From a virus (lineage: Duplodnaviria > Caudoviricetes): a stretch of DNA of 59,107 bases. Under the pieces are notes generated by a model that was not told the DNA's origin, ran no database searches, and worked only from the letters and a program-made list of their open reading frames with translations. The DNA is taken from the IMG/VR virus record IMGVR_UViG_3300023184_000140, positions 1 through 59,107 of that record; one strand, given 5' to 3'. A program made the translations under genes and the position numbers. This document shows positions 7,043 through 52,900 of the stretch, in pieces. The stretch's first letter is position 1; each line of letters starts with the position of its first letter.

Positions 7043-7198
7043 ATGAATTCACAATTTGAAGAAGCCGTAGAAATATTGCGTCAAATATGCGATTTCAACG
7101 GACATACAGATTTATACAATTGGTACGCAGATCCTGAAACAAGTAAGCTTTTTGAAAAAATCAGAGAGTTTTTAAAAGAGGTGCGTCATGAAGTATAA
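7043..7198 (+). CDS. Small hypothetical protein (51 aa, not in ORF track)
   Basis: GAGG RBS then MNSQFEEAVEILRQ...EVRHEV; fills the gap in the operon. Confidence 0.6.
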   Translation: MNSQFEEAVEILRQICDFNGHTDLYNWYADPETSKLFEKIREFLKEVRHEV

Positions 7199-7457
7199 AG
7201 CAGAAGTTGTAGTTGAGCTGGGCGATGAGGACACTAAGTACATCGCCGGTGTGACGTATTATCACTACCAAAAGCCAGACCGTTATTGCAAAGATAGTGA
7301 TGTAGACTACCACGGCTACACTGAGTTGGAATGGGAGCTTCTCAACATAGACGGCACGCTAGCCCATGAGGTTGAGTCTGTTTTGACTGAGCGTGAGAAC
7401 GACTACATTGAAGAGAAAATTAAAGAAGAGATGGAGGGTTATGATGAGGATCGGTGA
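7188..7457 (+). CDS. Acidic hypothetical protein
   Basis: 89 aa, GAGGTG RBS. Confidence 0.75.
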   Translation: MKYKAEVVVELGDEDTKYIAGVTYYHYQKPDRYCKDSDVDYHGYTELEWELLNIDGTLAHEVESVLTERENDYIEEKIKEEMEGYDEDR

Positions 7458-8104: not shown

Positions 8105-8280
8105 TGTTAGTTTGGGCTGCAGGATTCTTGACAGCTCTAGGTGTATTTACAGGCGTAGTAGGTATAACTTTTTATCTTTGGAGTCAACATGACAAACCTA
8201 ACAGAACACTTGAAGAAATCAGGTCTAGCCGTTCCAGCCAACAAAAGAGTGTGGATGTACTTAAAAGACCACCCGCATAA
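8089..8280 (+). CDS. Small membrane protein
   Basis: GGAG RBS and N-terminal hydrophobic helix; overlaps the next gene. Confidence 0.45.
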   Translation: METFVMLVWAAGFLTALGVFTGVVGITFYLWSQHDKPNRTLEEIRSSRSSQQKSVDVLKRPPA

Positions 8281-8590
8281 GTCAGCTAAAGAGATAGCGT
8301 TGGGTTTGAATGTTCACCCCGCTCAGGTATATACAGCTCTAAACGATTTATCGTCTCGCAAAATGGTAGTTAACCATATTGAGTTAGAAAAGCGAGGAGT
8401 AGGTAGACGTAGTATTAAAGTTTATCAAGCCGCAGGAGACAGGTTTGAATTGAAACCTGTGAAAAGTTTTGTCAAGATTGAAGAGCCTGTGGTAGTTCAG
8501 CCTGTCAAGCCGGTTGAAATAAACATAGACACGTTAAATGTTAAAGAAGCTAAAGCGTTATACGACAAATTGAAGGAGATATTTGGATGA
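8189..8590 (+). CDS. Winged helix-turn-helix DNA-binding protein
   Basis: VWMYLKDHPHKSAKEIALGLNVHPAQVYTALNDLSSRKMV...KVYQA is a wHTH pattern. Confidence 0.75.
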   Translation: MTNLTEHLKKSGLAVPANKRVWMYLKDHPHKSAKEIALGLNVHPAQVYTALNDLSSRKMVVNHIELEKRGVGRRSIKVYQAAGDRFELKPVKSFVKIEEPVVVQPVKPVEINIDTLNVKEAKALYDKLKEIFG

Positions 8591-9546
8591 GTGACACAGT
8601 GTTTCCTGAACTGTCTCTTGATAGAAATAAAGTTCGCTGGGAAGAACATTTAGGTATCCGTACCCCGTGGGAGAACCATAAAGGTATCTGGTTCAAGCGT
8701 GAAGATTACTTTGCGCCTCTCGGTTACGGTGGTCCGAATGGTTCTAAGATGAGGCAGCTGATATGGTACGTAAACAAATTCAAGACCAATCGTACTCATA
8801 TAGTGACCGGAGCGAGCATCCAGTCTCCTCAGCTGTCTATGTCTGCGATTGTTGGAGCACATTACAACCTCAAGGCTCGCCAGATTGTTTACAGCAAACC
8901 AGAGACAGTTCTGAAACACGAAAACCCAAGAATTGCTTACGGTTTCGGTGCGGAGTTTGAATATGCTAACGGACCATATAATCCTATACTGCAGCGCATG
9001 GTTCAAGACTTAACTAAACCTACTTCGCTGGTCGTTGAGTACGGTATTACTGTACCGCATGACAGGTATCCGGCAGAGTACGTCCAGAAGTTCCACGAGG
9101 TGGGCGCTAATCAGGTCTCTAACATGCCTAATGACGTTCAGACGCTAATCATGCCTGCAGGTTCTTGCAACTCTCTTACCAGCGTTTTACTAGGTTTAAG
9201 CAGGGATAGTAAAAACTTAGAAACCTTGTTCACTATCGGTATCGGACCAGATAAGCGTAGCTGGGTGAAAGAGCGTTTAAAAGTTATGGGTGTTGACATG
9301 GACAAACTGCCGTTCAAAGTGCGTCATCATAGTCTGCACGATACCGGCTTCAGCAAGTACAGTGACAAGTTTAACGGAGAAGAATTTGACGGTATCAGGT
9401 TCCATCCAACGTATGAGGCAAAAATGTGGCGCTGGCTAAAGCAGACCAACATGTTTGAAAACGAACACGTAGGTTTTTGGATTGTAGGTAGTGCGCCTAA
9501 CTCTAAAGTTATTGAACCGTTCTACACGAGGAAATACGATGCTTGA
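8587..9546 (+). CDS. PLP-dependent enzyme (fold type II), putative DNA-base decarboxylase of the hypermodification pathway
   Basis: WFKREDYF...GGPNGSKMR contains the PLP lysine; PAGSCNS phosphate loop; FHPTYEAK. Adjacent to the amino-acid:DNA transferase, like M6 gp52 / ViI gp226. Confidence 0.85.
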   Translation: MSDTVFPELSLDRNKVRWEEHLGIRTPWENHKGIWFKREDYFAPLGYGGPNGSKMRQLIWYVNKFKTNRTHIVTGASIQSPQLSMSAIVGAHYNLKARQIVYSKPETVLKHENPRIAYGFGAEFEYANGPYNPILQRMVQDLTKPTSLVVEYGITVPHDRYPAEYVQKFHEVGANQVSNMPNDVQTLIMPAGSCNSLTSVLLGLSRDSKNLETLFTIGIGPDKRSWVKERLKVMGVDMDKLPFKVRHHSLHDTGFSKYSDKFNGEEFDGIRFHPTYEAKMWRWLKQTNMFENEHVGFWIVGSAPNSKVIEPFYTRKYDA

Positions 9547-10534
9547 TTATCGCCTACCTGAAAACAGGGCAGAGTATTTTGATGACCTGTACATAATGAA
9601 TTTAAAGAACGGTGTCATGCCAGGACTCGTGTATCTTTACATGCCTATGTTGTCTCACCATAACAGCTGGGACAGTGAGCAGACACTTTGGTTCGCGTTC
9701 TTAAACGGTATGACACAGAACCCTATTACGTCGTTGCGTCTGTTTGAGCAGCTGCCTGAGGTTCCTCCTGCTGGAGCAAAGTTGACTCAGTTTGACACAT
9801 GGTTCAACGATAACTGGGACACCCTGCAGTTTGACACAGACCGCCGGTATCAGAAGCGAGATACAATACAGGCGATAAAAGTTTACGCAGAGCTGGTTAA
9901 ACAGTTCGGCTCACAAAGTAAAATGCTACTCGACAAAGACTACGCTACTTTGTGGAACATAGTACGTAACCATTACCATTCTTTTGGCAGACTGTCGTCT
10001 TTCAGTTACCTTGAGTACGTACACTTAAACGGGTTCGGTGCAGACTGTAAAGACCTTTTGTTTGAAGACAAATCAGGTAGCAAGTCGCACCGTAACGGTA
10101 TGTTCTTTCTGCTGGGTCAAGATGATTTAGTATGGGACAAAAGACTACCGAACGGGCAGGATGGTAATTACACAGACTTTAAAAAGATATGTAGCTGGTT
10201 GAGCGTACAAGCTGACGAGTATTTAGAAAAGTTTTACACAAAGAAATACCCGCACTGGGGTGTGAGCAAGTTTACTTTCGAGTCTAACCTGTGTACGTTT
10301 AAGAATCATTTCTTCGGTCGTCGGTATCCTGGTGTGTACGCTGACATGGCATGGGAGCGTATTGAGTGGGCAGAATCTCGCGGTATAAACTGTGACATTT
10401 TTAAAGAGATGCGAGCCGCTAAGTTACCTGACTGGTTGCGTCAGGAATGCGGAACTGACAAGTTGACGCTGAAACAAAAAGCTGCTATATTCCCTGAGAC
10501 GGGTTTTCCGTACAGAGGAGAACATTTCTTATGA
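9539..10534 (+). CDS. Amino-acid:DNA transferase (aGPT-Pplase2 family)
   Basis: FDTDRRYQK, FGRLSSFSYLEY, SKSHRNG and FESNLCTFK...RRYPGVY motifs; ATG at 9539. Confidence 0.85.
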   Translation: MLDYRLPENRAEYFDDLYIMNLKNGVMPGLVYLYMPMLSHHNSWDSEQTLWFAFLNGMTQNPITSLRLFEQLPEVPPAGAKLTQFDTWFNDNWDTLQFDTDRRYQKRDTIQAIKVYAELVKQFGSQSKMLLDKDYATLWNIVRNHYHSFGRLSSFSYLEYVHLNGFGADCKDLLFEDKSGSKSHRNGMFFLLGQDDLVWDKRLPNGQDGNYTDFKKICSWLSVQADEYLEKFYTKKYPHWGVSKFTFESNLCTFKNHFFGRRYPGVYADMAWERIEWAESRGINCDIFKEMRAAKLPDWLRQECGTDKLTLKQKAAIFPETGFPYRGEHFL

Positions 10535-11115
10535 GACATCAATTAGTCAATATTCGTGGCTGTAACGGTTCGGGCAAGACTACGATCGTGCGTAGGTTTT
10601 TAGACAAACTACCTACGCAGTCTTTAGGCGGTAGACCGGATAAACCTGTCGGGTACAAAGTAGATGCGTCTGGCTGGGGTATTCAAGCTCCCGTATTTAT
10701 CGTAGGTAGTTATGAGAACACTTGCGGCGGAGCTGACGGAATAAAGACTCAGGAAGAAATTGCAGAGCGTATCGTACAAGCTTTACCTTACGGACACGTG
10801 ATTGTGGAAGGTTTGTTGATGTCTAAGTCTAGCGACAAAGGACACACAGCGCCTATCATAAGAGACCATAACGGTATATTTGCATTTTTAGATACACCAT
10901 GGGACGTATGTTTAGATAGAGTATTGAACCGCCGCTTAGCAGCCGGTAATGACAAAGAATTTGATCCTGAGAAAACGATGCGTATGGCGTATAAACAATG
11001 TCATCGTAGCGCAGAACTCTTAACCGCTGCCGGTGGTTATGACGTTAGATGGCTAGATTGGCAAGACCCTATAACTGGAGTAGTAGGATACTTTAAAGAG
11101 GCTGAAAATGGTTGA
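10531..11115 (+). CDS. P-loop kinase, putative 5-hydroxymethyluracil DNA kinase catalytic subunit or hmdUMP kinase
   Basis: NIRGCNGSGKTT Walker A; GSYENTCGGADGI; VIVEGL; FLDTPWDVCLDRVLNRR; located inside the cluster. Confidence 0.8.
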   Translation: MRHQLVNIRGCNGSGKTTIVRRFLDKLPTQSLGGRPDKPVGYKVDASGWGIQAPVFIVGSYENTCGGADGIKTQEEIAERIVQALPYGHVIVEGLLMSKSSDKGHTAPIIRDHNGIFAFLDTPWDVCLDRVLNRRLAAGNDKEFDPEKTMRMAYKQCHRSAELLTAAGGYDVRWLDWQDPITGVVGYFKEAENG

Positions 11116-12031
11116 GACCTGCCCGTACCCTAGACCGACTGCTGAAAATGTTTGCACGATGGAGTCACTGCTTTACTTCGTGTGGGAGAGAGAAGTCGTA
11201 AGGATCGTGAAAGAGCGAGGTGGTGAAAAGCCATGGACTAATGATCCCGTGTTTGAAAAATATAAGTTTACTAACATACACCGTAAAGACGACAGAGTAT
11301 CAAAGTGGATCATAAAAGAAATAATCAATCTAAACCTGAAAGATAAAAACCTTTGGTTCTCTTTGCTAATCGCGAGGTTAGTCAACTGGCCACCGACTCT
11401 TGAAAGGTTGCTCTATGAAGATATTATTCCATGCCCCCCAGAGGATTTCGACGGTAAAGCGTTCTCTAAAACTATTGAGAGCTTCAAAAAAGAATCGACG
11501 AAAGTTTACGGGGGAGCGTATATGGTTTACCCGACCAAGTTGGATATCGGTAAATGCAAATCGTATTCACTTTCGAAACATATTATCGGCGCTGCTATCG
11601 AGGCATCAGCAGAAATATATTTCTCTTTGTGGAGGAAGGATGAGAATAAGTCGGTTCAAAGCTTTGTCGATACGTTATCTAAATGCTATGGAATTAGCAC
11701 CTTCATGGCAGGGCAGGTCGCGGCAGATTTATCGTACGCCAGAGGTCATCTTGACGATGCGGAAGACTTATATACCTTTGCGCCGATGGGACCAGGTAGT
11801 ATGCGAGGGTTAAACTATTTACAGAATAGAAAACCTTTTGCTGGTTGGCAGCAAGATGATTTCAACCAGATACTGTACGACATAAATAAAAACATAGCAG
11901 AAGAATTACGCATAACTGATTTAACTTTACACGATGTACAGAACGTGATGTGTGAGTACGGTAAGTATTGCCGAGTTGTGTTAAACGAAGGTGTACCTAA
12001 AACATTATATAAGCCTGAAATGGAGTTCTAA
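11108..12031 (+). CDS. aGPT-Pplase1 / 5-hmdU DNA kinase helical-domain protein
   Basis: FVWERE...PWTNDPVFEKYKFTNIHRKDDRVSKW, FMAGQVAADL, GPGSMRGL and QNVMCEYGKY motifs. Confidence 0.85.
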   Translation: MVETCPYPRPTAENVCTMESLLYFVWEREVVRIVKERGGEKPWTNDPVFEKYKFTNIHRKDDRVSKWIIKEIINLNLKDKNLWFSLLIARLVNWPPTLERLLYEDIIPCPPEDFDGKAFSKTIESFKKESTKVYGGAYMVYPTKLDIGKCKSYSLSKHIIGAAIEASAEIYFSLWRKDENKSVQSFVDTLSKCYGISTFMAGQVAADLSYARGHLDDAEDLYTFAPMGPGSMRGLNYLQNRKPFAGWQQDDFNQILYDINKNIAEELRITDLTLHDVQNVMCEYGKYCRVVLNEGVPKTLYKPEMEF

Positions 12032-13030
12032 ATGGAAATAACTGTACGCAACGTCAACCAAGCTTTTTCTGAAGTATTCTGGAAGCTTAAAGCAGCTAAC
12101 TTACAACCTGAACAAACTAGAAACGGACCAGCGTTAGTGTTTCCAGAGCCTGTGATTACAACGTATCTACGACCAACAGAGAGGGTATTATTCCATGCCG
12201 GACGAGACGCCAATCCTATTTTTCACCTCATGGAAGCGATATGGATGCTTGCAGGACGCAATGATGTTGCATTCTTGGAACAATTTAATCGTACGATCGG
12301 GCAGTACAGCGACGACGGAAAAGTGTTTAACGCTGCCTACGGACACCGCTGGCGTAAACATTTTGGACATGATCAACTCATCGAAGTTATAAACCTTTTA
12401 CGTAAAGACCCTAAATCTCGACAAGCTGTGATTCAGATGTGGGACGATAAAGATTTAACGAAGGAAACTAAAGACAAAGCTTGCAATACGCAGGTTGTGT
12501 TCAGTATTCGCGGAGGTTTCTTTTTAGACATGACTGTGTTCAATAGGTCTAACGATATCTGGTGGGGAGCGTATGGCGCTAATGCTGTACACTTCAGCGT
12601 GTTACAAGAGTTCGTAGCTACTTCCGTAGGTATGCAGGTTGGCGTGTACCGTCAAATTAGCAATAATTTACATTTGTATACGGAACTGTATGATGCTGAG
12701 AAATACGTGAACTCTCCTCCGAACGCACACATATATGATCACTATAGCAACTACCTAGTTAAACCTTTGCCGCTCATGTTGGACGGTCATTACCAGAGCT
12801 TTTTATGGGACGCAGAAGAGTTTTGCACGAAACCTTTCAACGATAAAATTGTTTACCGCCACCCGTTCTTTCAAGGTGTAGCTGTACCTATGGCTACAGT
12901 CAGCGCGATGCGTAAAGGTAAAGTTACAGACGGAAGAGGTTACGCTTCAAAGATAAAAGCACCTGATTGGAAAAACGCTACGCTTCAATGGATCAATAAT
13001 AGAGAAGCTAAAAAGCAATCAAAAGTTTAA
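12032..13030 (+). CDS. dUMP hydroxymethylase (thymidylate synthase superfamily)
   Basis: TRNG, RDANPIFH, AYGHRWR, SRQAVIQMWD, catalytic DKACN, and RSNDIWWG...N with Asn at the dUMP-specificity position; NLHLY. Confidence 0.88.
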   Translation: MEITVRNVNQAFSEVFWKLKAANLQPEQTRNGPALVFPEPVITTYLRPTERVLFHAGRDANPIFHLMEAIWMLAGRNDVAFLEQFNRTIGQYSDDGKVFNAAYGHRWRKHFGHDQLIEVINLLRKDPKSRQAVIQMWDDKDLTKETKDKACNTQVVFSIRGGFFLDMTVFNRSNDIWWGAYGANAVHFSVLQEFVATSVGMQVGVYRQISNNLHLYTELYDAEKYVNSPPNAHIYDHYSNYLVKPLPLMLDGHYQSFLWDAEEFCTKPFNDKIVYRHPFFQGVAVPMATVSAMRKGKVTDGRGYASKIKAPDWKNATLQWINNREAKKQSKV

Positions 13031-13053
13031 TCTTGATTTGAAAATACAATCAA
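13010..13053. promoter_or_regulatory. Putative operator AATCAA-N10-TTGATT, copy 2
   Basis: AAAAAGCAATCAA-N10-TTGATTTGAAAATACAATCAA, upstream of TATAAT at 13072-13077. Confidence 0.6.
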
Positions 13054-13106
13054 CCAATGTTATTTTTAACCTATAATTCTTCGTATAACTCATAACTGGA
13101 GAGCGC

Positions 13107-13604
13107 ATGAAAACCACCCTTGAATTCATTTTAGCCGGTGCTGCTGTAAAGCGATACCACACGGTGACTACGCTCATGACTGAGACCGTTGGTCATCATT
13201 CGCATGGTGTTGCTTTGCTGTGTATGCTTCTTGACCTTAACCCGAGTCGGGGGTTAATACACGCTGCTCTTTTCCACGATTTAGCTGAGCATCAGACGGG
13301 TGATATACCTTCACCTGCTAAGCATAAATACGGCATCGGTGATCAGGTTAGCCAGCTTGAAGAAAAGTTACTCAAAGAAGCTGGTATAGCTATGCCTCAA
13401 CTTCATCCTGACGACGCAAGAATTTTAAAATTAGCAGACGTGGCACAAGGTGCGTTGTTCTGCGTGAAAGAAATGTCTCTAGGTAATAGTAACATGAGAA
13501 GCATTTTCAATCGTTATATCGCGTATGCTGAAGAGATGATGCTTTACGGACGTGAAAAAGAATTGTTTAATCTAATTAAGGAGATGGCAGATGAGTGCAA
13601 ATGA
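13107..13604 (+). CDS. HD-domain 5'-deoxynucleotide phosphohydrolase (YfbR/DatZ-like)
   Basis: VKRYH...ETVGHHS...AALFHDLAE...GDIPSP.K...LKLAD. Confidence 0.85.
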   Translation: MKTTLEFILAGAAVKRYHTVTTLMTETVGHHSHGVALLCMLLDLNPSRGLIHAALFHDLAEHQTGDIPSPAKHKYGIGDQVSQLEEKLLKEAGIAMPQLHPDDARILKLADVAQGALFCVKEMSLGNSNMRSIFNRYIAYAEEMMLYGREKELFNLIKEMADECK

Positions 13605-13842
13605 CAAGCAGGTTGCAGGTACGCATTACCGCTCAGGTATTCAGCACTGGGACTACGTGGTAGCTAACGATCTTGATTATTTTCAAGGTCAAATTACTAA
13701 GTACGTCACCCGTTGGAAAAATAAGAACGGTATGGCTGATTTGTTGAAAGCTCAACACTTCCTTGAGAAGTATATTGAGATCATCAACACGCCGCCTGAC
13801 GATGGTTCCGAACCTACTAGAAATTACATTAATCAGGACTAA
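13591..13842 (+). CDS. DUF3310 (SaV / T7 gp1.7-like) protein, putative nucleotide kinase
   Basis: QVAGTHY...QHWD...YFQGQITKYVTRWKNKNGMADLLKAQHFLEK. Confidence 0.85.
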   Translation: MSANDKQVAGTHYRSGIQHWDYVVANDLDYFQGQITKYVTRWKNKNGMADLLKAQHFLEKYIEIINTPPDDGSEPTRNYINQD

Positions 13843-15683
13843 TGGCTACGTTTGTGTTTGATACTGAGACATTACCGAATCGTACTTTGTTCTGCGCTAA
13901 AAACGTAGATACAGGCGAGTGGTTTGATCTCTGGCAGCATGAGGAAGACTCAGCGCAGAGACTGTTGAAATTTGTTCAGCAACCTGACTCTACGTTTGTA
14001 GGTTTCAATAACCGCTCGTTTGACAACGTAGTGGTTGCTGCATTTTGTGCCGGACGCACTTCGTTAGAAATTAAACGTATAGCTGACGATTTGATTGTGA
14101 ATCGTGTAGCACACTGGCAGGCAATGCGTAAGTTCAGTCTCAGGGACGTAATGATAGACACTATAGACATTATTGAAGTGGCTCCGTCGTTCGTAGGTTT
14201 AAAAGCTTACGGAGCGCGTATGCACATGCCTATACTGCAAGACATGCCGATAGCTCATGATGCTCATATTACGCTTGAGCAGGAACCGCTGGTGCTTGAA
14301 TATTGTCATAATGACGTTGATACTACGCAAGAGTTGCTACGCCAGCTTGAAAAAGAAATCATGCTCAGAGTAGACATGTCAAAGCAGTACAAAACTGACA
14401 TGCGTAGTAAGTCTGATTCACAGATGGCTGAACAAGCTTACGTAACGTCTATGAAGCTTGAGCGTAGAGATAATGAAGTACCAGACACCGTAACATACGT
14501 ACCTCCTCAGTTTCTCAAGTTCATAGATACCGAGTTACAAGGTTTGTTGGATAAGGTTTCTGTGCATGTGTTTGATATGAATAAAAACACAGGGCACGTC
14601 ATACTGCCAGATTTTTTGGGTGGAACTACAATAAAATTCGGCGTAGGTGAATATCAACTTGGAGTAGGAGGAATACATAGTGTACACGACAAATCAATCT
14701 GCTACGTCGCTGGTGACGACATCATCTGCGACATCGATGCTGCCTCGTTTTACCCCTCGATTATCCTTGAATGTGGTTTTATCCCCAAGTCGCTCGGGAA
14801 ACCGTTTATCGATGAGTACAGAAATATTTATAACAAACGACTCGAAGCAAAGCGAACCGGAGACAAAGTAATTAACGAAACTCTAAAGATTTCGTTAAAT
14901 GGCACTTTCGGTAAACTGGCCAGCAAATATTCAGTTCTTTATTCCCCCGATCTGATGTTAGCGGTAACGCTAACTGGCCAGTTTACACTTTTAATGTTGA
15001 TTGAATGGTTGGAGAAAGCCGGTGCGGTAACTTTATCCGCTAACACCGACGGCATAGCGATTCGCTACTCGAAATCGCTGCACGAGACCGTTCAGAAGGT
15101 TGTGGCTAAGTTTAGTGAAATATCGCGGTTTGAGTTTGAATTTACGCCATATAGAGCGTTAGCTATGAAAGACGTAAACAACTACATAGCAATCAAGCCA
15201 GATCGCAGTCTAAAAGTAAAAGGTATATATGCGCCGTTATCGTTGCGGAAGAACCCCACAGCGCAGGTCGCTTCAGACGCAGTCGGTCAGTGGCTCGCGG
15301 TCGGTACGCCATTTGAGGAGACTATACGCAATGCACCGTTTCAAGATTTTATCTCGGCTAGGAATGTCACTGGAGGGGGTGAGCAGTTTGGCAAATTCCT
15401 TGGCAAAGTCGTTCGTTGGTACCAATCTAGTGATGGTGAAGTGGATCCTATTAGATATGTTTCCAACGGAAACAAAGTACCAAAGACGGATGGTGCGAAA
15501 GCGTGCATGATTTTAAAAGACAAAGTCATACACCCTAAAGATTTAGACTATGACTGGTATATCAAAGAAGCAATTAAGATAGCTATAGCAGTAGGTTGCA
15601 AGGATTATTTAACAGCGGAGCAGTTGGCTTTGGTTGCTCCTCCACCAAAACAGCCTAGGAAGAAGAAAAATGGAACAGGGTAA
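13842..15683 (+). CDS. DNA polymerase, family B, with N-terminal 3'-5' exonuclease
   Basis: Exonuclease motifs FDTET, GFNNRSFD and YCHND; polymerase motifs DIDAASFYPS, KISLNGTFGK and SANTDG. Confidence 0.92.
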   Translation: MATFVFDTETLPNRTLFCAKNVDTGEWFDLWQHEEDSAQRLLKFVQQPDSTFVGFNNRSFDNVVVAAFCAGRTSLEIKRIADDLIVNRVAHWQAMRKFSLRDVMIDTIDIIEVAPSFVGLKAYGARMHMPILQDMPIAHDAHITLEQEPLVLEYCHNDVDTTQELLRQLEKEIMLRVDMSKQYKTDMRSKSDSQMAEQAYVTSMKLERRDNEVPDTVTYVPPQFLKFIDTELQGLLDKVSVHVFDMNKNTGHVILPDFLGGTTIKFGVGEYQLGVGGIHSVHDKSICYVAGDDIICDIDAASFYPSIILECGFIPKSLGKPFIDEYRNIYNKRLEAKRTGDKVINETLKISLNGTFGKLASKYSVLYSPDLMLAVTLTGQFTLLMLIEWLEKAGAVTLSANTDGIAIRYSKSLHETVQKVVAKFSEISRFEFEFTPYRALAMKDVNNYIAIKPDRSLKVKGIYAPLSLRKNPTAQVASDAVGQWLAVGTPFEETIRNAPFQDFISARNVTGGGEQFGKFLGKVVRWYQSSDGEVDPIRYVSNGNKVPKTDGAKACMILKDKVIHPKDLDYDWYIKEAIKIAIAVGCKDYLTAEQLALVAPPPKQPRKKKNGTG

Positions 15684-24649: not shown

Positions 24650-26583
24650 TATGCTGCTCCCTTCAAATACTGTAATGGTGATTTAGCATTCGGGCTAAAC
24701 TTACCTTTGGCCATTTCTTTACCTTTTTGTTTACGTAACTGTTGGCGCATCGCATCTAAACGTAGAGCACCTTCTTTGTTAGAACCGTCTCCTAACAACG
24801 CTACTGTTTCAGCATCCATAACATATTCTCCGTCTGAAAGCTTTGCATCAATGGTGTCTTCTCGACCAGAACCCGCACCCTGTGCAAACCTACCTATCAT
24901 AGAAAGAGGACCACCTTGAGCTAATTTATGAACAGGCGTATTATAAGTTCCAGAAGTAATTTTATTCCAATTCGTAGCCATGTAAGAATCTAAACTTTGA
25001 TTAGCTCTGTTTGCATCTTGCTGCATTCTTGCCCAGTCCCATTGCACAGAAGGTCTGTTAAAATACTCTTGCTGACTAGGTGACATACCGCTTATAGCTT
25101 TTTGGGCATCAGGTGGTCTTTGCATTGATGAGGCTAAAAGAGCCATAGTTGCTAAGTTTCCAGCACCACCAAACCCGCTCAAGCCTCCCCCGCCTCCAGC
25201 TGTTTGAGTACCTATAGAAGCACCTATCGGATTATTATAACCCGCCGGAGCCATCAGATTATTTGAAATACCTCCGTTTGACGGAACAGTACTGAAATTA
25301 CCTGACATTGACCTAACAGTATCAGATGCGGCAGAAGGACTACCTAGACTATAATTTGCGTTTTGAGTTCCTGTGTCAACGTATTTTAAACCACCGGTGT
25401 CGCTATACGGATTTTGATAAAGCCCTGTAGGTACTTCAGAACCAACCGTAGAAAGAGAAGTTTTTAACCCGTCAACAGTCATGTCAGCCGGTTTCATTTT
25501 CAAGCCTAATGACGAATCCGGAGTGCCGCTCAAAGCGTTTGAGGTGTATTGAGTTCCTCCAGCAGCTAAAGCTGTCAATGCTGCCGCTTTAGGGTCGTAA
25601 CCTACGGTTAAAGCGTTACCGAAACTCCTACCCGCAGCTCCTCCAAACCCGCTACCAGTACCTACAGCATTTCCTATAGCTCCGCCAAGTGCTCCTTGCG
25701 TAGCACCGCCTAAGAAACCTTTACCTGTAGCCATGCCGGCGACACCGCCAACTAAACCGCTACCGAGAATAGATTCACCGGCTTTTCCTAAACCTAAACC
25801 TAAAGTACTGTTAGCAGCGTTTCCTACAACACCACCTAAACCGCCACCTAAGCCGCCCATAAGCGCACCTTGTAGCACGTTACCGCCAGTTAGAGCAGAG
25901 GAGGCTCCACCTATGATAGCACTACCTAACATAGATGCGCCTACACCTGTAGCACCTAAACTAGTTCCGATAATTGTTCCAAGTCCTGGGGCGATTACGC
26001 TTAAAGCGATAGGTAAAATAGCACCTAAAAGACCGCCGCCTTTAAATTCACGTAGTCCGGTGTTAGGGTTGATTGTCCCTGAACCACCCATTCTACGTAA
26101 TACTTCAGCTTCTCTAGGGTTGATATGAGCTAACATTGTGTCGCCACCGCGACCTTGGTTAGCTAAGCTCCTAGCAACAGCCAAACCACCGCGAGCGAAA
26201 CCTTGTTTAGTGAGTCGTTCTTCCACACCGTAAAGAGCAACTAGCAGAGATATAACGAACACTTGGTCAAACTGAGGAGGAGCTTGATCTTCTGTGACTA
26301 CACCGTCTTTAATAGCCGCAGCTCTGACCTGTTCGTAGTTTTCAGGATGTTGAAGAACATACTCTAGCATTTTAATGATTTCTTGAACGTCTCCAGCCAT
26401 GATGGGCATACCGGAGATTTGTTGTTCAATCATGTCAATCGCTTGCTGGAACCTTGGGTCTCGGTTTGCGATGTCTAAAATAGCTTGTTTATTCAAAGCA
26501 GGACGCTCACCACCTTGCATATCTGCAGGAGGAGGTTCAGCAGGAGCCATTTGCATAGGATCCATCATAGTATTCTCATTCAT
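24649..26583 (-). CDS. Internal virion protein with Gly-rich membrane segment and tape-measure-like C-terminal motif
   Basis: FARGG...GRGGDTMLAHINPREA...GTINPNTGL; glycine zipper; LAQGG...GSGREDTIDAKLSDGEYV. Confidence 0.75.
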   Translation of the reverse strand: MNENTMMDPMQMAPAEPPPADMQGGERPALNKQAILDIANRDPRFQQAIDMIEQQISGMPIMAGDVQEIIKMLEYVLQHPENYEQVRAAAIKDGVVTEDQAPPQFDQVFVISLLVALYGVEERLTKQGFARGGLAVARSLANQGRGGDTMLAHINPREAEVLRRMGGSGTINPNTGLREFKGGGLLGAILPIALSVIAPGLGTIIGTSLGATGVGASMLGSAIIGGASSALTGGNVLQGALMGGLGGGLGGVVGNAANSTLGLGLGKAGESILGSGLVGGVAGMATGKGFLGGATQGALGGAIGNAVGTGSGFGGAAGRSFGNALTVGYDPKAAALTALAAGGTQYTSNALSGTPDSSLGLKMKPADMTVDGLKTSLSTVGSEVPTGLYQNPYSDTGGLKYVDTGTQNANYSLGSPSAASDTVRSMSGNFSTVPSNGGISNNLMAPAGYNNPIGASIGTQTAGGGGGLSGFGGAGNLATMALLASSMQRPPDAQKAISGMSPSQQEYFNRPSVQWDWARMQQDANRANQSLDSYMATNWNKITSGTYNTPVHKLAQGGPLSMIGRFAQGAGSGREDTIDAKLSDGEYVMDAETVALLGDGSNKEGALRLDAMRQQLRKQKGKEMAKGKFSPNAKSPLQYLKGAA

Positions 26584-27035
26584 AACTTACCTCTACGCCA
26601 TGCGTGTGTGTAATATTCTTCTGCTAAAAAGCCGTATATGTGTAGATCATCATCTGCGAAAGATTTACGCATTATACCTTCTAGTTTGAAACCTAAATGT
26701 TCTACAAAATTCTTTGAAGCTTCGTTTTTACCTCTAATTAGACCAGTTACTCTAGCAGCCCCAAGCTGGTCAAACGTGTAGCTAAAAACAGCATTAAACA
26801 ATGTTAAAACTTCTTTCGGTGAATCAAACCCTTTAGGTTTTAAAGCAATGTTTATGTCTACGTTCCTAGATGAAAAATTTGTAAAAACAACAGCGCATGT
26901 AAATTCATTGTTTTCATCTACCACAGACATAACTCTGCAAAACCCTGTTATGTTTAGAGCACCTACACGTTCTTTTACCCATTTTTCAGCTTCTTCCTCT
27001 CGGTTAAAGCCGATGAATCTCATCATGTTAAACAC
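26580..27035 (-). CDS. GNAT acetyltransferase (DUF2824 / T7 gp13-like)
   Basis: YTFDQLGAARVTGLI...NEASKNFVEHLGFKLEG.MR is a RimJ-like pattern; lies between the nozzle and ejection genes. Confidence 0.85.
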   Translation of the reverse strand: MFNMMRFIGFNREEEAEKWVKERVGALNITGFCRVMSVVDENNEFTCAVVFTNFSSRNVDINIALKPKGFDSPKEVLTLFNAVFSYTFDQLGAARVTGLIRGKNEASKNFVEHLGFKLEGIMRKSFADDDLHIYGFLAEEYYTHAWRRGKL

Positions 27036-32647: not shown

Positions 32648-32962
32648 TTAGATTGACTGCGAAGTTATAGAATTCAAATCGGTAGTAATTTCTGCCGAGT
32701 AATCAATTGGCGTTCTTGCTTCAACAGTAGGAGCAACGAACACATTGTTTACTTCGTCATATGTGTCACCTATAGCAGCATATTTACCACGGAAACTACC
32801 ATTGTAACTTGTTTGTTTCCATATGCCGCCTAGTAAACGCTCACAGAATGCTGCGCCAATATATTCTTTTTCAACACCATTAGCGTCCGAAGTATCTTCG
32901 TTGGCTACTACGATTACACGTAGAACAACTTTATCACTATTCAATTCAGCAAAATGCGCCAT
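32648..32962 (-). CDS. Tail-fibre-associated hypothetical protein
   Basis: MAHFAEL...WKQTSYNGSFRGKYAAIGDTYD, a pattern often seen beside Gly-rich fibre genes. Confidence 0.75.
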   Translation of the reverse strand: MAHFAELNSDKVVLRVIVVANEDTSDANGVEKEYIGAAFCERLLGGIWKQTSYNGSFRGKYAAIGDTYDEVNNVFVAPTVEARTPIDYSAEITTDLNSITSQSI

Positions 32963-33570
32963 TATTCTTCTCCTAAATGTAACCCTGTCAAACTTTCATC
33001 TGAACCAATGTAACCTTTGACAAAAGTGTTAAATGATATACTGATACGAGTTCCATCGCTCTGTTTTGTTTGCACCATGTGCGTTAAATTGGATGGAAAA
33101 ATAATTAAGTCACCAGTGCCTGTTTCAAACCACCAGCTTTCGCTATTCCAATGGTTCCAGTTTTCAGTTGGAATCTTAATGCGCTCGTAACCGTCTTTAT
33201 AAAAATAAATTCTGTCTGTTTCTCTATCAGCTTGCGGGTAAAACACACCAGAAATAATACTGTTAGGGTGAGCGTGTTTGTGGTGATACTGACCTTTTTC
33301 TGTGAAATTAGCCCAGCTTTGAGTAATATACGGTGTTACATCATGTTTAGGCGCATACACAGATTTAAAATACTCCAACATCGCGTCTTCAATAAACTCA
33401 CGAATCTCTGTCATTTCAACAGACTGCAGCATTTTTCTATTTTCGCTTGTAGTATTACCATCATTTGGGTAACGTACTTGTTCTTTAATAAATTTTAATT
33501 CTTCTTCAGTTAAATCACGATCTAGTTTAGAAAAACCTACTGCCGTCGGAAAAAGATTATTTATATTCAT
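32962..33570 (-). CDS. 2OG-Fe(II) oxygenase (TIGR02466-like)
   Basis: SWAN...HHKHAHPNSIISGVFY (HxH), GDLIIFPSNL.H.V and RISISFN. Confidence 0.88.
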   Translation of the reverse strand: MNINNLFPTAVGFSKLDRDLTEEELKFIKEQVRYPNDGNTTSENRKMLQSVEMTEIREFIEDAMLEYFKSVYAPKHDVTPYITQSWANFTEKGQYHHKHAHPNSIISGVFYPQADRETDRIYFYKDGYERIKIPTENWNHWNSESWWFETGTGDLIIFPSNLTHMVQTKQSDGTRISISFNTFVKGYIGSDESLTGLHLGEE

Positions 33571-47529: not shown

Positions 47530-49989
47530 TTAAACTCCTGGGTTGACGCCAGTTCCTGTGCTAACGGCGACCTTCTCTCCGCTAGCGATTTCCGCTGCTG
47601 CGAGACGCATTGCTGTCTCGTTGTCATCGGTGTTCATTTCCAGACGTGCTTGCAGTTCGGCCATTGTACGCTGGTCTTCTGACTGCTGACGTAGCTGCTC
47701 GCGCTGCAACTCAGCTTGACGATCTTGGCTGCCGTCAGCCAGTTTCTGCTGTTCAAGTTGCAACCTAGCCTGATCTGTCTGAGCTTTCTGTTGCAATGCC
47801 TGAGTTTGTATCTGAGCGCCGATCTTAGCCACTTGTAGGCTGTTGTCTGGCGGCATAGGCGGTTCAGGTTTGAACTGCTGTGCTTGTTGATCGATCTGAG
47901 CCAGCTCTTGTGCAAACGAAGCCAACTGCTGTTCAATGAATCTTTGCACTTCAAGTATGACTTCTACTTGCTGCTGTGAGTCTTCTTCAATCAAATCTTC
48001 ATTTTGCGCTCTATCTACCGCATCATGCGCTTGAGAGAGGTAATAGTTCAATAGATGGTCGCGCAAATGTATAGACATAGGGTAAAGATATGTCTTTATG
48101 ATGGCTGGGTTCTGCCCAAACAGCGGAGACTTCAAAAAAGCTAGGTGCGTCATCAAGTGCGCCATGTGATCTTGTCCTGGTAGCACGTAAACTGGGCTAC
48201 CCATGGTAGCTGCTACGTTCTCAGACACCGGATCCATGTCTTCTGACGCTGGTTTAGGCTGAAGCACGTCCGTATCGCTGATTTTCAACGTGCGGAGGAA
48301 CATATCCTCCACTTTTCTAGCGTCATACAGCTGAGGCATCATAGCCGCACGCTGCATTACTGCTTGAACCTGCGCAAAACGCTGTGTTTCGCTGAAAATT
48401 GATGGGTCAGACACCGGAATGATGTCCATCGGACCATCAAAGTCACTAGGATCTATCTCAATACCAGCTGCTTGCGCTTTGATATCCTCTTCAGTCAGGT
48501 ATGCACTGTCTATTCGGTGCAGAATCTCAAACACTTTCTCCATGGATGAATGGAGACGTGCGTGGATGCTGCTGAACACCACCATACCTTGCTCAATTAG
48601 AGCTAAAGTAGTACCGACTGGCTGATTAGGGTTCTGGTCTGACAGCTTTTCAAAGCTCGTCTGTACTACACCTTTACCGGCATCAACTAAGAAGCCGAGT
48701 AATTGGAACAGAACAGGACTAGGTTGGTTAAACGGCATAGGCATGGCTAGCTTACGCACGTCATCAATCATCGCTCCACCGTCCATCTCAACAACTTCGG
48801 TAGGTTGTACGTTGATGGTCTGACCGGATGGTCCCCCTTTCAGCTTGAGCAAGGTTGGGATGTTCTGAATATGCGCTGAATCCATCAGCGCACGCAGTGC
48901 GCCGGTGGCTGCTCCAGACAAACCGCCAATCATATGCGTCAAGCCGATTGGGTAAGCACCACGCCAAGGTACAAACGGGAACTCAACAATCCAGTCTAAC
49001 TCTTCACGCTGCTCGTCATCTGCTTCCCAGTTACGATACAACGACAGAGCCTTGCTAGTTGTCTTGTCAATAGACAGAATGTACGGCTCACTACCGTCAC
49101 CGAAGTCCAAAAACGTATACACTTCGTAGATCGTACGTAGTCCGTCTTCGTTGTACGACGATGCTTGACGACCTTCAATCTTATCGTTAGCTACCGTTGA
49201 CTTACTGAACTCAGGATCTCCTGGCATACCTAAGTCAACGTCAATATACATCTCCTGCTTGACACGCTTCTGGTACTCCATCTTCGTGATATACTGCACG
49301 TGCGTCTTGCGCTCAGCAGAGTAGAAATTGGTAGCAGCGAACGGCAGGTATATATCGTCAATAGCGATGAACTCAGAAGCAGGACGCTTAAACTGAGGGT
49401 TCCACATTAACTTCATGTACTGCCCGCCACCCAGCGGGAGCTGCGTAGACAACTGCTCAAGCTCGGAGCGGAACTCCTTCATCTGCTTGGTTGTCTGCCA
49501 GTTCATGAAGGTAGCTTTACGGTCTGCCTTCGCCAGCTTGTCTTTATCTTTTGTGCCGTAGATCTTACTACGTACAGGACCATTTGGAGGGAAAATCTCT
49601 TTCATGAATCGTGCTGAGAAGTCTACACACGCCTCAACTAGCATTGGGTGTACGACCTTGTTTGCGCCGGTGAACTGCGCACCACCAGGAGCATCGTCAC
49701 CTAGTCCGGTACGACGGATACCTTCCTCATACTGTTTGTCACGCTTCTCACGTGCGGTCTTATCTTTGTCAATTTTCTCGAGTAAGTCGGTAACTGCCTC
49801 GTACAACTCTGACTGATCAACTTCTTCAACGATGTTTGAGAAATGACTCAGGTTACGCTTGAGGTCTACGTCGTTCTTTTCGCGCAGAATCGCGCCACCG
49901 TCTTCGGTATCTTCTACCTCGTTGTCTACGTCTTCTAAACGAACGGTTTCACCCTTTAACTCTTCATCATCCTTCATTTGCTCAGCCAT
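47530..49989 (-). CDS. Portal protein (P22-like, with C-terminal barrel)
   Basis: 819 aa; GANKVVHPMLVEACVDF, YPIGLTHMIGGL, PVGTTLALIEQG and IIPVSDP motifs; Q-rich C-terminal helix. Confidence 0.9.
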   Translation of the reverse strand: MAEQMKDDEELKGETVRLEDVDNEVEDTEDGGAILREKNDVDLKRNLSHFSNIVEEVDQSELYEAVTDLLEKIDKDKTAREKRDKQYEEGIRRTGLGDDAPGGAQFTGANKVVHPMLVEACVDFSARFMKEIFPPNGPVRSKIYGTKDKDKLAKADRKATFMNWQTTKQMKEFRSELEQLSTQLPLGGGQYMKLMWNPQFKRPASEFIAIDDIYLPFAATNFYSAERKTHVQYITKMEYQKRVKQEMYIDVDLGMPGDPEFSKSTVANDKIEGRQASSYNEDGLRTIYEVYTFLDFGDGSEPYILSIDKTTSKALSLYRNWEADDEQREELDWIVEFPFVPWRGAYPIGLTHMIGGLSGAATGALRALMDSAHIQNIPTLLKLKGGPSGQTINVQPTEVVEMDGGAMIDDVRKLAMPMPFNQPSPVLFQLLGFLVDAGKGVVQTSFEKLSDQNPNQPVGTTLALIEQGMVVFSSIHARLHSSMEKVFEILHRIDSAYLTEEDIKAQAAGIEIDPSDFDGPMDIIPVSDPSIFSETQRFAQVQAVMQRAAMMPQLYDARKVEDMFLRTLKISDTDVLQPKPASEDMDPVSENVAATMGSPVYVLPGQDHMAHLMTHLAFLKSPLFGQNPAIIKTYLYPMSIHLRDHLLNYYLSQAHDAVDRAQNEDLIEEDSQQQVEVILEVQRFIEQQLASFAQELAQIDQQAQQFKPEPPMPPDNSLQVAKIGAQIQTQALQQKAQTDQARLQLEQQKLADGSQDRQAELQREQLRQQSEDQRTMAELQARLEMNTDDNETAMRLAAAEIASGEKVAVSTGTGVNPGV

Positions 49990-52900
49990 TTTGTTCCTCT
50001 ATTAACTGTGCTGCCATCTCATCAATTTCATCAGGATTGAACTCTACCGCTCCACCCTTTGCGTACGGTACTGAGAGTTCGACTTTGCGTCCGGTACCAG
50101 GAGGCATCTTACGACCGCCATATAAACGAGCAAGAGCGTAAGGAGACATTTCTCCAAGGTAGTCACCATAGTGCTCGAGAGGAATGTCAATCTTCCTATC
50201 TTGGTACGTAGTCTGCTGCGGATTAAAATCATACTCATCAATAATTTTATACTGCTTAGTCTTTGGATCTAATTGGTAATTGAACTGCCCGAGTGCTTTA
50301 GACAAAGACGGACGGGGAGGCATGACACCGCCGATGAGATTCGCCACAACACCTTTACGTCGATTGCCGCCGGTCAGTTCGTCGTAGTCTTTGTACTCAA
50401 TGTAACCCTTACCTTTACCGCCGGACAGCTTCTCTTTCTGCCGGATCAGGTTCTGCAACTCTGACAATTCTTCTGCGTTGAAATCACTAGCAGTGATTGG
50501 GTCACGCTTGTCACGCGCAAACGTATCTAAGTATATCTTATGCGCAGCGGACATACGGTCGCGGTTAGACAGTTTATCGTAAAGATTGATAGCACCTTCG
50601 GTTACTTTGTCTGACACCCATGCGCCCATCCGGTCTCCGAACGTCGGCTCTAAATCATCAAACGGTGAAGGCTCTTTGCGTTTAGCGCTACCGCCTTTTT
50701 CCATATGTACCGCTCCACCCTGCGCGAAGCCGTAACGGTACATAAGGTTCAGCATAGTCTGCCGGCTGTCGGGTCTATGTGTACCGCCGACCATAAACTC
50801 GGAGCCATCGCTCAGTTGTTTACGGTACATAGCATTGAGAGTCTTCTCACGTGTCTCAGGATCCATGTTAGCGCTCAACTGATACCCACCGCGAGGATTC
50901 ATATCTTCGTAAGTGACTCCTAACTGAGATACTTTCTTCTGCCGAGGGTCTACGTCAACGTATCCCCGTAAATGGTCTGTACCTGCGCTGCCTCTCAGAT
51001 TGACACCTCTGTTGTTAGTCCAAGCGTCTAATGCAAATGGTCCGGCAGAGTAGTGCCCGCCTAGCGGACTCATGTTCCTCAAACTGTCAAGCAGGGAAGG
51101 TTCAGGTATGTCTCCGGACTCTGCCGCTCTCTCCTGTTGTACGTCAACCAGCTCTGCTGCCATCTGACGTATCAGGTCGTCATCGTACTCTGCGTGACCG
51201 CCAGCAGCGAAATTCACGGAGCCTCCTTGGGCGAAACCTTCTGGTTTGAAGTTGCGGATAGCTTCCAACACGGTGTTAGCTTGTTCTCCTGGCTCTATAC
51301 CGCTTCTTACTACGTTTGCCATTCCTCTCCAATACGCAATCGGTTCATCCCCTACGACATTTTCAGGATAACCGTGTTGCTGGGCAAGCTCACGTAAATC
51401 TTTTTCACTGAGGTAACTGTTTTCGATTTTAGCTAAATCTGCGTTCCTTAAATCGTTAACGTCTCTCCATTCACCACTACGTACGAAGTCTTGAACAAAC
51501 GGTAAAACTTCTTCAGAAGGTTTGCCGTTCCTTGAGCCTTTAATTTGCTCTATTCTTTCAAGCTTTGGTGTTTCTAAACCTTTACTCTGCAAAAACTTTT
51601 CTAACACTACGTCCATGTCGGGGTCGTAAAACGGACTGTCTTTCCCATACCCTCCCATTTCCCAAAAGTCTTTATGGAGTTCTCTGTATTTCTCATCACC
51701 TAAAGATTTGTGAATTGTGTCCCATGGTGAATTGTCTTTCACAGGCTGAACTTCAATAGTAGCATGAGGTCTACCCTCTGCGTCACGCAGACTGAATATA
51801 CGGGAGTAACCGTTCACTACGCTGTCGCAATACCCTCCCACGCAATGTTTGAGCGTGTCTCCTTCGTATTTGAGAGCGTCTTCTAAAGCTTTTTTACCGC
51901 CTTCACCTTCTGGTAATTTCAGTTCTACCCACTTTAATCCAGCGTTTGGGTATTCTTTATGAGTAACAGTAGCGGCATTAGCAGAGTGTGCTAAACTTGC
52001 TTCTGCTTGCTGAGTAGCTCGCCATGCATTGATTTGGTCAATTATGTCAACCACCTGCGGGACGCTCATCTTGTCAAGCTTCTTCGGGTCTACCCTTAGA
52101 TGTTCAGGAAGGTCGCTTCCTGGTCGCATAGCGTTTTGAAGCTCATCTGCAATATGGTCAAGACCCATATCACCTGTGCGAAATTGATCAATGTGATATA
52201 CCGGAGTCTCAAGAGAAACTTTTTCAAGCCATGGGTTTGTTTTTAAAACTTCTTCTCCGTATATAGAAGCAAGTCGTCCTTTGTCATTTGGATTAGTACG
52301 CGCTCTTCTGTATATCGTATCTAAAAGATCTCCAGAAAGATAAGTATCTATGCTTTTATCAGCAATATTCTCCCAACCTTCTGCCCTTGCTCTCGTGGTA
52401 GGATCCCCTTTGAAGTCTCTCCACGTATGACCCATTATAGGTTCTCCGGCTTTCTTTCTAGCCTCAGTAACGTCTTCTGGCACCCGTCCTTGAGCATTTT
52501 CTAAATGTTCTGCAGTTAAATGCGAACCTGTTCGGTTTTCAATTAAAGCTTTCTCTCTGTTCAACTCACGTATGCGAGCTTGAGACTGAGTCATCATTTC
52601 CGGAGTGAAGCCTCGCTTAGCACGAGCCTTCTCCATGTCAGATACAGCTTTGTCAATCTGCTTCTGCTTCTCAGCGAGCAGCATCTCACGTTTCTCTGGC
52701 CACTCTTGAATAGATAAACGTATCGGGTCTTCTGCAGTCGCCATCTCATTTGAGAGGTATTTAGTTAACTTACTCTCAATCCATTTGTTTAACGCTTCTG
52801 CCCTAGTATTTTGACTGATAACTTGTTGAGTTATTCCTGGTTGCATCTCTCCAGTAGCTTCTCTCCGACCTAAATCTTCTACGTATGCCGGTTCGCGTAC

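Follow-up and report, generated by a model that had tools for sequence, protein, structure and literature searches.

The virus record IMGVR_UViG_3300023184_000140 is a whole record of 59,107 bases, 100% complete according to CheckV, and this entire stretch (the window) carries a cassette of eight plus-strand genes, at 8587-15683, that is predicted to encode a pathway for the hypermodification of thymidine in DNA. The first gene encodes a pyridoxal phosphate (PLP) enzyme of fold type II, resembling gp226 of Salmonella phage ViI (319 aa; 8587-9546), and the second an amino-acid:DNA transferase, ADDT, formerly known as aGPT-Pplase clade 2 (331 aa from its ATG; 9539-10534). These are followed by genes for a P-loop kinase predicted to act on 5-hydroxymethyldeoxyuridine (5-hmdU) in DNA (194 aa; 10531-11115), the helical protein HMUDK_hel or aGPT-Pplase clade 1, a putative partner of the kinase (307 aa; 11108-12031), and a thymidylate synthase (TS) homolog predicted to hydroxymethylate deoxyuridine monophosphate (dUMP) (332 aa; 12032-13030). 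The cassette ends with an HD-domain, YfbR-like 5'-deoxynucleotidase (165 aa; 13107-13604), a DUF3310 protein (83 aa; 13591-13842) and a divergent family-B DNA polymerase (613 aa; 13842-15683). A sequence-only reading of the window had described the first five of these genes as tightly coupled and followed by the other three, and the list of open reading frames (ORFs) and the junction sequences agree with it: all frames are intact and translationally coupled, with overlaps of 8, 4, 8, 0, 14 and 1 nt in gene order and a sole gap of 76 nt between the TS homolog and the HD gene. The cassette gave no megablast match in 50,697 GenBank phage records, and the closest GenBank phage matches to its proteins all showed less than 60% identity.

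Proteins of the cassette

The ADDT matches PF18724 with 63 bits (E 4.5e-17; cut-off 26.2). Its longest ORF begins with a GTG at 9491, and the ATG at 9539 is the supported start because homologs of 331-335 aa cover residues 1-331. The protein is 27% identical to the serine:DNA transferase gp247 of ViI (E 3e-27), 36% to MONT_42 of Glutamicibacter phage Montesquieu and 35% to gp3 of Mycobacterium phage Prince. Comparison with the glycine transferases M6 gp51 and PaMx11 gp46, and with the putrescine enzyme PhiW-14 gp109, gave no significant similarity (E>1). One Glu and one Cys residue are essential in the ADDT family (Lee 2021, PMC8989533, section 17). By alignment these residues are matched by E248 and C252 of the window enzyme, which were invariant in 11 of 11 aligned ADDTs, M6 gp51 and ViI gp247 included. 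Furthermore, an insert with a GSxS[HN]RNG motif is common to ViI gp247, both actinophage enzymes and the ADDTs of the window and its environmental relatives, and is missing from the three N-linking enzymes of M6, PaMx11 and PhiW-14. A phylogenetic tree (IQ-TREE, 11 rows of the joint alignment) separated the enzymes of PhiW-14, M6 and PaMx11 from those of the window and its relatives, ViI, Montesquieu and Prince with 100/100 support. Such a tree had been named in the sequence-only reading as a check on its assignments, and it places the window ADDT and ViI gp247 on the same side of the deepest split of the family.

The PLP enzyme matches phrog_3650 (E 3.7e-76). Its alignment with ViI gp226 spans the full length of the protein (33% identity, E 4e-62) and is interrupted by a single insert in gp226, of about 50 residues, that the window enzyme does not have. 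In pairwise alignments K54 lies opposite K92 of gp226, the proposed internal aldimine lysine (Lee 2021, PMC8989533), and opposite K36 of M6 gp52, where only the neighbourhood of that lysine is alike (pairwise E 0.001); tblastn of the window with M6 gp52 was negative at E<=0.1. When 1.84 billion cluster representatives were searched in full with HMMER, 441 homologs came up at E<=0.001, and the length of several of these (527 to 1278 residues) points to possible fusions with other domains. K54 was found to be invariant across an alignment of 69 diverse homologs. The AlphaFold2 model built from this alignment had a mean pLDDT (predicted local distance difference test) of 96.6, and its best PDB folds were D-cysteine desulfhydrase 4d97 and the 1-aminocyclopropane-1-carboxylate (ACC) deaminase homologue 1j0a, with template modelling scores of about 0.6-0.68. 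The 1j0a structure is also the template given for ViI gp226 (Lee 2021, PMC8989533). As modelled, the protein has the fold of the type-II PLP enzymes, and by analogy with gp226 it is predicted to be a decarboxylase of a DNA-bound amino acid. A sequence search of the PDB gave a chance match only (E 0.47).

The kinase carries the Walker A motif GCNGSGKT and matches phrog_800 (E 1.2e-19). Its identity is 33% with PaMx11 gp49 (E 1.9e-22) and 32% with M6 gp54 (E 1.5e-9). Both of these proteins are listed as 5-hmdU DNA kinases, and M6 gp54 has been purified and assayed (Lee 2021, PMC8989533). The helical protein matches PF18723 with 136 bits (E 1.8e-39; cut-off 25) and is 25-29% identical to its M6 and PaMx11 counterparts (29% to M6 gp55). 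Bacillus phage SP10 encodes a kinase and a helical domain as one fusion, a gp186-type protein of 637 aa, with PF18748 at residues 35-193 and PF18723 at residues 313-598. The domain order is the same in the window, where the two domains are encoded by separate genes that overlap by 8 nt. Because of the fusion in SP10 and the gene overlap in the window, the kinase and the helical protein are probably functionally linked. Assignment of 9539-10534 or 11108-12031 to unrelated families would have told against the sequence-only reading; Pfam places them in ADDT and HMUDK_hel.

The TS homolog matches PF00303 (Thymidylat_synt; 76 bits, cut-off 24.3) and phrog_5131 (E 1.9e-106), and is 44% identical to M6 gp58 and 43% to PaMx11 gp51 over its full length. 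Its best match in the PDB is the cytidine monophosphate 5-hydroxymethylase MilA, with 88 bits versus 53 bits for Escherichia coli TS. Alignment with E. coli TS confirmed the Asn that had been noticed at the specificity site: the homolog keeps the catalytic Cys and has Asn at the position of Asn177, where MilA has Asp. This Asn favours dUMP as the probable substrate. The product is likely to be hydroxymethylated rather than methylated, judging by these relatives and by the DNA kinase of the cassette, which needs 5-hmdU. In pathways of this kind the 5-hmdU comes either from a dUMP hydroxymethylase or from a TET/JBP dioxygenase. The HD protein matches PF12917 (YfbR-like; 46 bits, cut-off 25.9) and HD_3 (31 bits), shows the H...HD...D residues in its translation, and is 34% identical to PaMx11 gp52 and 33% to M6 gp59, which occupy the same cluster position. 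By analogy it is predicted to be a nucleotidase that depletes thymidine nucleotides. The DUF3310 protein matches PF11753 (27.2 bits, cut-off 24), phrog_5839 (E 5.4e-26) and several PHROGs annotated as nucleotide kinase; it shares 42% identity with PaMx11 gp53 and 59% with the beginning of M6 gp61, again at the same position, and is possibly a nucleotide kinase module. The polymerase matches phrog_1252 (E 5e-164) and scores 23 bits against DNA_pol_B_2, under the cut-off of 25.8. In the PDB it weakly matches the family-B polymerases of E. coli (Pol II, E 7e-4) and of a Sulfolobus.

The tailoring enzymes that distinguish the M6 and PaMx11 pathways were also looked for, the sequence-only reading having seen no radical S-adenosylmethionine (radical-SAM) or flavin adenine dinucleotide (FAD) gene. 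This observation stands. The radical-SAM family PF04055 gave no match in the window at E<=0.1, in a search that was positive in 14 of 14 control genomes. Likewise, tblastn of M6 gp53, PaMx11 gp47 and PaMx11 gp48 gave no match in the window at E<=0.1, and a Pfam scan of the 69 other ORFs gave at least 25 families, with no radical-SAM or FAD family among the 25 listed. The window does encode a GNAT acetyltransferase (26580-27035, minus strand; PF13302, 28.8 bits, above cut-off), which lies within the virion module and had not been mentioned in the sequence-only reading. Its likeness to PaMx11 gp48 (pairwise E 0.002) covers a generic GNAT stretch of 60 residues only, and on that comparison it is not an ortholog of gp48.

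Relation to known hypermodification systems

The chemistry of ViI, M6 and PaMx11 as summarised in the sequence-only reading is in agreement with Lee 2021 (PMC8989533; Table 1, sections 16 and 19). The enzyme set of the window is the same as that of ViI (Ackermannviridae), which makes 5-(2-aminoethoxy)methyldeoxyuridine (5-NeOmdU), likewise with no radical-SAM or FAD step. The ViI set consists of the kinases gp67 and gp243, the aGPT-Pplase1 gp160, the serine:DNA transferase gp247 and the PLP decarboxylase gp226 (Lee 2021, PMC8989533), so that ViI has two kinases whereas the window has one. For ViI a mass of 345 u was reported for the intermediate and one of 301 u for the product (Lee 2021, PMC8989533). 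The layout differs as well. ViI is a 157-kb myovirus in which the located genes are tens of kb apart (the PF18723 match at 87.6 kb, gp226 at 140.6 kb and gp247 at 151.2 kb), while those of the window form one coupled cassette. Moreover, among the reference loci compared, the best or only matches of the window kinase, helical protein, TS homolog and HD protein are in M6 and PaMx11, not in ViI.

The Pseudomonas siphoviruses M6 and PaMx11 (Mesyanzhinovviridae), which make 5-(2-aminoethyl)deoxyuridine (5-NedU) and 5-(acetylaminomethyl)deoxyuridine (5-AcNmdU), respectively, also have genomes of about 59 kb. They share the gene order of the window: transferase, tailoring genes, kinase, aGPT-Pplase1, TS homolog, HD, DUF3310 and polymerase. 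Five window proteins have homologs at the same positions in these phages, with identities of 32-33% for the kinase, 25-29% for the helical protein, 42-44% for the TS homolog, 33-34% for the HD protein and 42-59% for the DUF3310 protein. In contrast, the glycine transferases of M6 and PaMx11 and the PLP enzyme of M6 show no significant similarity to those of the window, which is also without the radical-SAM isomerase of M6 and the FAD lyase and acetyltransferase of PaMx11 and has a virion module of another type. Because its five core proteins match M6 and PaMx11 and its transferase and PLP enzyme match the ViI and actinophage type, the cassette is, on these homologies, a chimera of an M6/PaMx11-type core with an exchanged tailoring pair of the ViI/actinophage type.

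The same gene set is annotated in Montesquieu, a cultured phage from cheese rind: aGPT-Pplase clades 1 and 2, a TS/pyrimidine hydroxymethylase, a PLP enzyme labelled 'ACC deaminase' and P-loop proteins. Its ADDT and PLP enzyme are 36% and 31% identical to those of the window; gene order and backbone differ, and no similarity was detected between its P-loop protein and the kinase of the window. The closest cultured ADDT relatives, represented by Mycobacterium phage Prince (1-6730; our locus L024), are encoded at the left end of mycobacteriophage genomes, in a cluster of ParB, thymidine hydroxylase, ADDT and kinase genes. The annotations of mycobacteriophage ADDTs vary between DNA glycosylase, nucleotide pyrophosphohydrolase and hypothetical protein, and their substrate is not stated in the available text of PMC13229309.

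Among podoviruses, uncultivated HTVC023P-type genomes of clades V, VIII and IX were reported in 2022 to carry TS and aGPT-Pplase1 genes, sometimes with a 5'-deoxynucleotidase, near the polymerase, and these hypermodification genes were related to those of M6 and PaMx11 (PMC9599517). These podovirus-type genomes are similar in size to the window (PMC9599517). Their polymerase is called PolA, versus family B in the window, and the main text of that paper mentions no clade-2 transferase, DNA kinase or PLP enzyme, the word kinase there referring to histidine kinases only (PMC9599517). Furthermore, Lee 2021 (PMC8989533, section 21) reported 352 IMG/VR2 and 713 GOV2.0 contigs with homologs of the 5-hmdU DNA kinase (5-HMUDK), in which radical-SAM, PLP, flavin and other genes occur in combinations, often beside a dUMP hydroxymethylase. 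Combinatorial sets of kinase, aGPT-Pplase2 and PLP genes from IMG/VR and GOV2 contigs have thus been described already (PMC8989533), and contigs of the present lineage may already be drawn in Figure 2 or the supplements of that paper. A literature search found no paper on the full set of transferase, kinase and PLP enzyme in this podovirus lineage.

Environmental relatives and virion backbone

A word-indexed search yielded 877 ADDT homologs at E<=1e-5, and the best 120 of these were 65-95% identical and located on contigs of up to about 59 kb. From 123 IMG/VR relatives, 80 loci were kept and surveyed by tblastn. Six core genes were found in order in 67 of the 69 loci that were informative (4600 nt or more between the start of the ADDT gene and the end of the locus) and in 70 of the 80 loci overall, with protein identities of 39-98%. 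The polymerase gene follows downstream in 47 of the 48 loci that extend for 6500 nt or more from the start of the ADDT gene. The exceptions to the ordered core are L003, where the HD gene is missing after the TS homolog, and L101, which has the PLP and ADDT genes with no match to the kinase, helical protein, TS homolog or HD gene within 10 kb downstream. The cassette lineage is common in metagenomes.

The position of the PLP gene is less regular. In 70 loci with at least 1300 nt upstream it lies directly upstream of the ADDT gene in 40, elsewhere in the locus in 19, and was not found in the locus in 11. It is present in 17 of the 19 near-complete relatives (at least 92% complete). The remaining two, G014 (L079) and G019 (L100), retain the ADDT, kinase, helical protein, TS, HD and DUF3310 genes, and in both of them a 167-171-aa ORF of no known family is found directly upstream of the ADDT gene. 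Some loci have an extra ORF between the PLP and ADDT genes (L037:7029-7850 and L040:6857-7795, and similar ORFs of 248-256 aa in L057, L068, L081, L093 and L101). These were considered as candidate tailoring enzymes and set aside: two gave weak DHH/DHHA1 phosphoesterase matches and the shorter ones no Pfam match, so that no recognisable tailoring enzyme was among them. The kinases of the relatives (loci L026-L104) form two groups by their identity to that of the window, 68-93% and 39-48%, whereas the adjoining ADDT varies smoothly from 58 to 95% identity. This contrast points to a possible replacement of the kinase gene within the lineage. A Micrococcales label on the metagenome-assembled genome with one ADDT homolog was considered as a clue to the host and was taken to reflect a binned phage contig instead.

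The portal protein is 57.5% identical to those of Caulobacter phages RW, KcrB, RLK and GB2A, 36-37% to those of Roseobacter phages CRP-901/902 and 31-33% to those of Pelagibacter phages HTVC023P/HTVC027P. One window ORF has an SU10_adaptor domain and one matches a PHROG for a DNA ejection protein, while no tape-measure or sheath family was found among the Pfam and PHROG matches of the window ORFs. This gene content fits a virion of podovirus type, the morphology being a prediction from these families. Searches for PF18723, PF18724 and the TS homolog gave no match in Caulobacter phage RW, MW202545, CRP-902 and HTVC027P, and the same family searches found the genes in the controls ViI, M6, PaMx11, PhiW-14 and SP10.

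Several other features of the window were recorded. A 133-aa ORF at 8189-8590 (plus strand), unassigned and possibly a small helix-turn-helix protein, overlaps the start of the PLP gene by 4 nt. Its single match is to TrmB with 17.3 bits, below the Pfam cut-off, it has no PHROG match, and because only 7 of the 80 related loci have it (37-100% identity), it is not, on this survey, a conserved part of the cassette. Just upstream, a small ORF at 7188-7457 (plus strand) gave a weak match (22.8 bits, cut-off 27) to the Pfam family YuA_Gp49, whose name comes from a protein of YuA, an M6-like phage. In the virion region a 2OG-Fe(II) oxygenase is encoded at 32962-33570 (minus strand; PF13759, and phrog_81 with E 5.8e-47); such oxygenases are frequent auxiliary genes of HTVC023P-type podoviruses (PMC9599517). 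Between the large terminase and portal genes lies an ORF of 1124 aa (49982-53356, minus strand) with almost no family match, and large ORFs are found at the equivalent place in MW202545 and HTVC027P. No tRNA was found in a search of the window.

Predicted pathway, alternatives and significance

The homology of the core to M6 and PaMx11, together with the pathway described in Lee 2021 (PMC8989533), allows the steps before replication to be proposed. The TS homolog would convert dUMP to 5-hmdUMP, the HD nucleotidase would strip thymidine nucleotides, the DUF3310 protein may assist the phosphorylation of 5-hmdUMP, and the family-B polymerase would then incorporate 5-hmdU into the DNA. After replication the P-loop kinase, probably with the adjacent helical protein, would phosphorylate a fraction of the 5-hmdU on the DNA to 5-phosphomethyldeoxyuridine (5-PmdU). 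Transferases of this family form an adduct between Cys and C6 and an exocyclic methylene, which is then attacked by a nucleophile (Lee 2021, PMC8989533). In the window ADDT Cys252 would form the adduct with C6, after which the phosphate would be expelled and a free amino acid captured. PLP enzymes of these pathways decarboxylate only substrates with a free primary amine (Lee 2021, PMC8989533, section 19). With no radical-SAM isomerase in the window, the PLP enzyme could find the free alpha-amine that it requires only on an amino acid joined by its side chain, which is how serine is bound in ViI. The PLP enzyme of gp226 type would finally release CO2 from this side-chain-linked amino acid, giving 5-NeOmdU or a close analogue, and the modified base would protect the DNA from host nucleases. 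A working hypermodification pathway of this ViI-like type, in which a side-chain-linked amino acid is decarboxylated, is considered likely. That the final base is exactly 5-NeOmdU is a more tentative proposal, rated slightly below an even chance, although it is the single most likely product, since no isomerase is present and both tailoring proteins are related to those of ViI.

Several points weigh against this reading. Every step in it is deduced from homology. The kinase scores 21.2 bits against PF18748, under the cut-off of 27, and the part given here to the helical protein is tentative, M6 gp55 not having been needed in vitro (Lee 2021, PMC8989533). The PLP enzyme has no Pfam match at E<=0.01, and the nearest solved folds are those of desulfhydrases and deaminases, with no decarboxylases among them. 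For the ADDT, the identity to ViI gp247 is low at 27%, gp247 itself is on a very long branch (4.04) in a tree whose inner forks are unresolved, and the nearest cultured homologs (35-36%) are actinophage enzymes without an assigned substrate. Finally, no PLP enzyme was found in G014 and G019, even with the family profile and in a search in which the positive control matched. As these are two of the 19 near-complete relatives, the PLP step is, judging by gene content, dispensable in the lineage.

The distance of the ADDT from characterised enzymes bears most directly on which amino acid is attached. At 27% identity the amino acid used by the window enzyme cannot be called from the alignment, because family members that far apart use different substrates: the M6 and PaMx11 enzymes, which are 53% identical, share glycine, while the 27%-identical PhiW-14 enzyme uses putrescine (PMC8989533, Table 1). 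The same pathway might therefore employ another nucleophilic side chain (threonine, homoserine, cysteine, ornithine or lysine) and yield an undescribed base after decarboxylation, as the long branch to gp247 and the closer relationship to actinophage enzymes would allow. This is a serious rival, though less probable than serine. Against it, the PLP enzyme matches gp226 over its full length, the GSxS[HN]RNG insert is shared with ViI and absent from the N-linking enzymes, and no feature indicates any particular alternative.

Two further proposals concern the steps that follow transfer, and both are improbable. By analogy with PaMx11 gp48, the GNAT at 26580-27035 might N-acetylate the primary amine after decarboxylation. 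The gene occurs in nine of the 19 near-complete cassette-bearing relatives, each time together with the PLP gene, and is absent from the four cassette-less virion relatives examined. Against such a role, it lies about 16 kb from the cassette, in the virion module and on the opposite strand, ten of the 19 cassette-bearing relatives are without it, and its likeness to gp48 is generic. Just as hard to credit is the proposal that the PLP enzyme catalyses another fold-type-II reaction (beta-elimination, deamination or beta-replacement) with no decarboxylation. The closest folds do belong to D-cysteine desulfhydrase, ACC deaminase and threonine deaminase, and GenBank labels homologs as threonine dehydratase or ACC deaminase. 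However, decarboxylation has been shown for ViI gp226 and M6 gp52, which share this fold (Lee 2021, PMC8989533, section 19), the window enzyme aligns with gp226 along its length bar the one insert, and beta-elimination on O-linked serine would just regenerate 5-hmdU. Very improbable is the remaining explanation, that in this uncultivated genome the genes are relics or serve ordinary nucleotide metabolism and the DNA is unmodified or contains T only: the eight coupled frames are intact, the catalytic residues are kept, the ordered core recurs in nearly all informative loci, and neither a kinase of DNA bases nor an ADDT is known to serve any purpose but hypermodification.

The ViI-like pathway thus agrees with the gene assignments and the pathway proposed in the sequence-only reading, both of which are borne out by homology to characterised enzymes. 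Its alternative of 5-NeOmdU or a new base as the product is likewise fair. The novelty claimed there was overstated. A podovirus-type virion is a weak basis for it, given the HTVC023P-type podoviruses with TS and aGPT-Pplase1 genes (PMC9599517), the gene combinations reported in Lee 2021 (PMC8989533) and the gene set of Montesquieu. The window is a new, well-conserved and environmentally common instance of the known thymidine-hypermodification systems. Every enzyme class in it has a characterised relative, and no new mechanism is added.

The cassette does show how such systems evolve, in that a core of the M6/PaMx11 type and a tailoring pair of the ViI type are combined in a podovirus-type backbone, the closest cultured virion relatives of which are without the cassette genes. 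The compact post-replicative set of four genes makes it a convenient candidate from which to learn how an ADDT chooses its amino acid, and the natural relatives with and without the PLP step would be useful for the same question. A tentative and less probable extension is that in this abundant lineage of aquatic podoviruses the amino acid transferred and then decarboxylated is not serine, that genomes with the GNAT maybe carry an N-acetylated product, and that the PLP-less relatives keep the undecarboxylated adduct. If this were true, a large fraction of environmental phage DNA would carry an undescribed thymidine derivative. As the lineage is common in metagenomes, its modified thymidine may affect both the recovery of these phages by sequencing and cloning and their escape from host nucleases.

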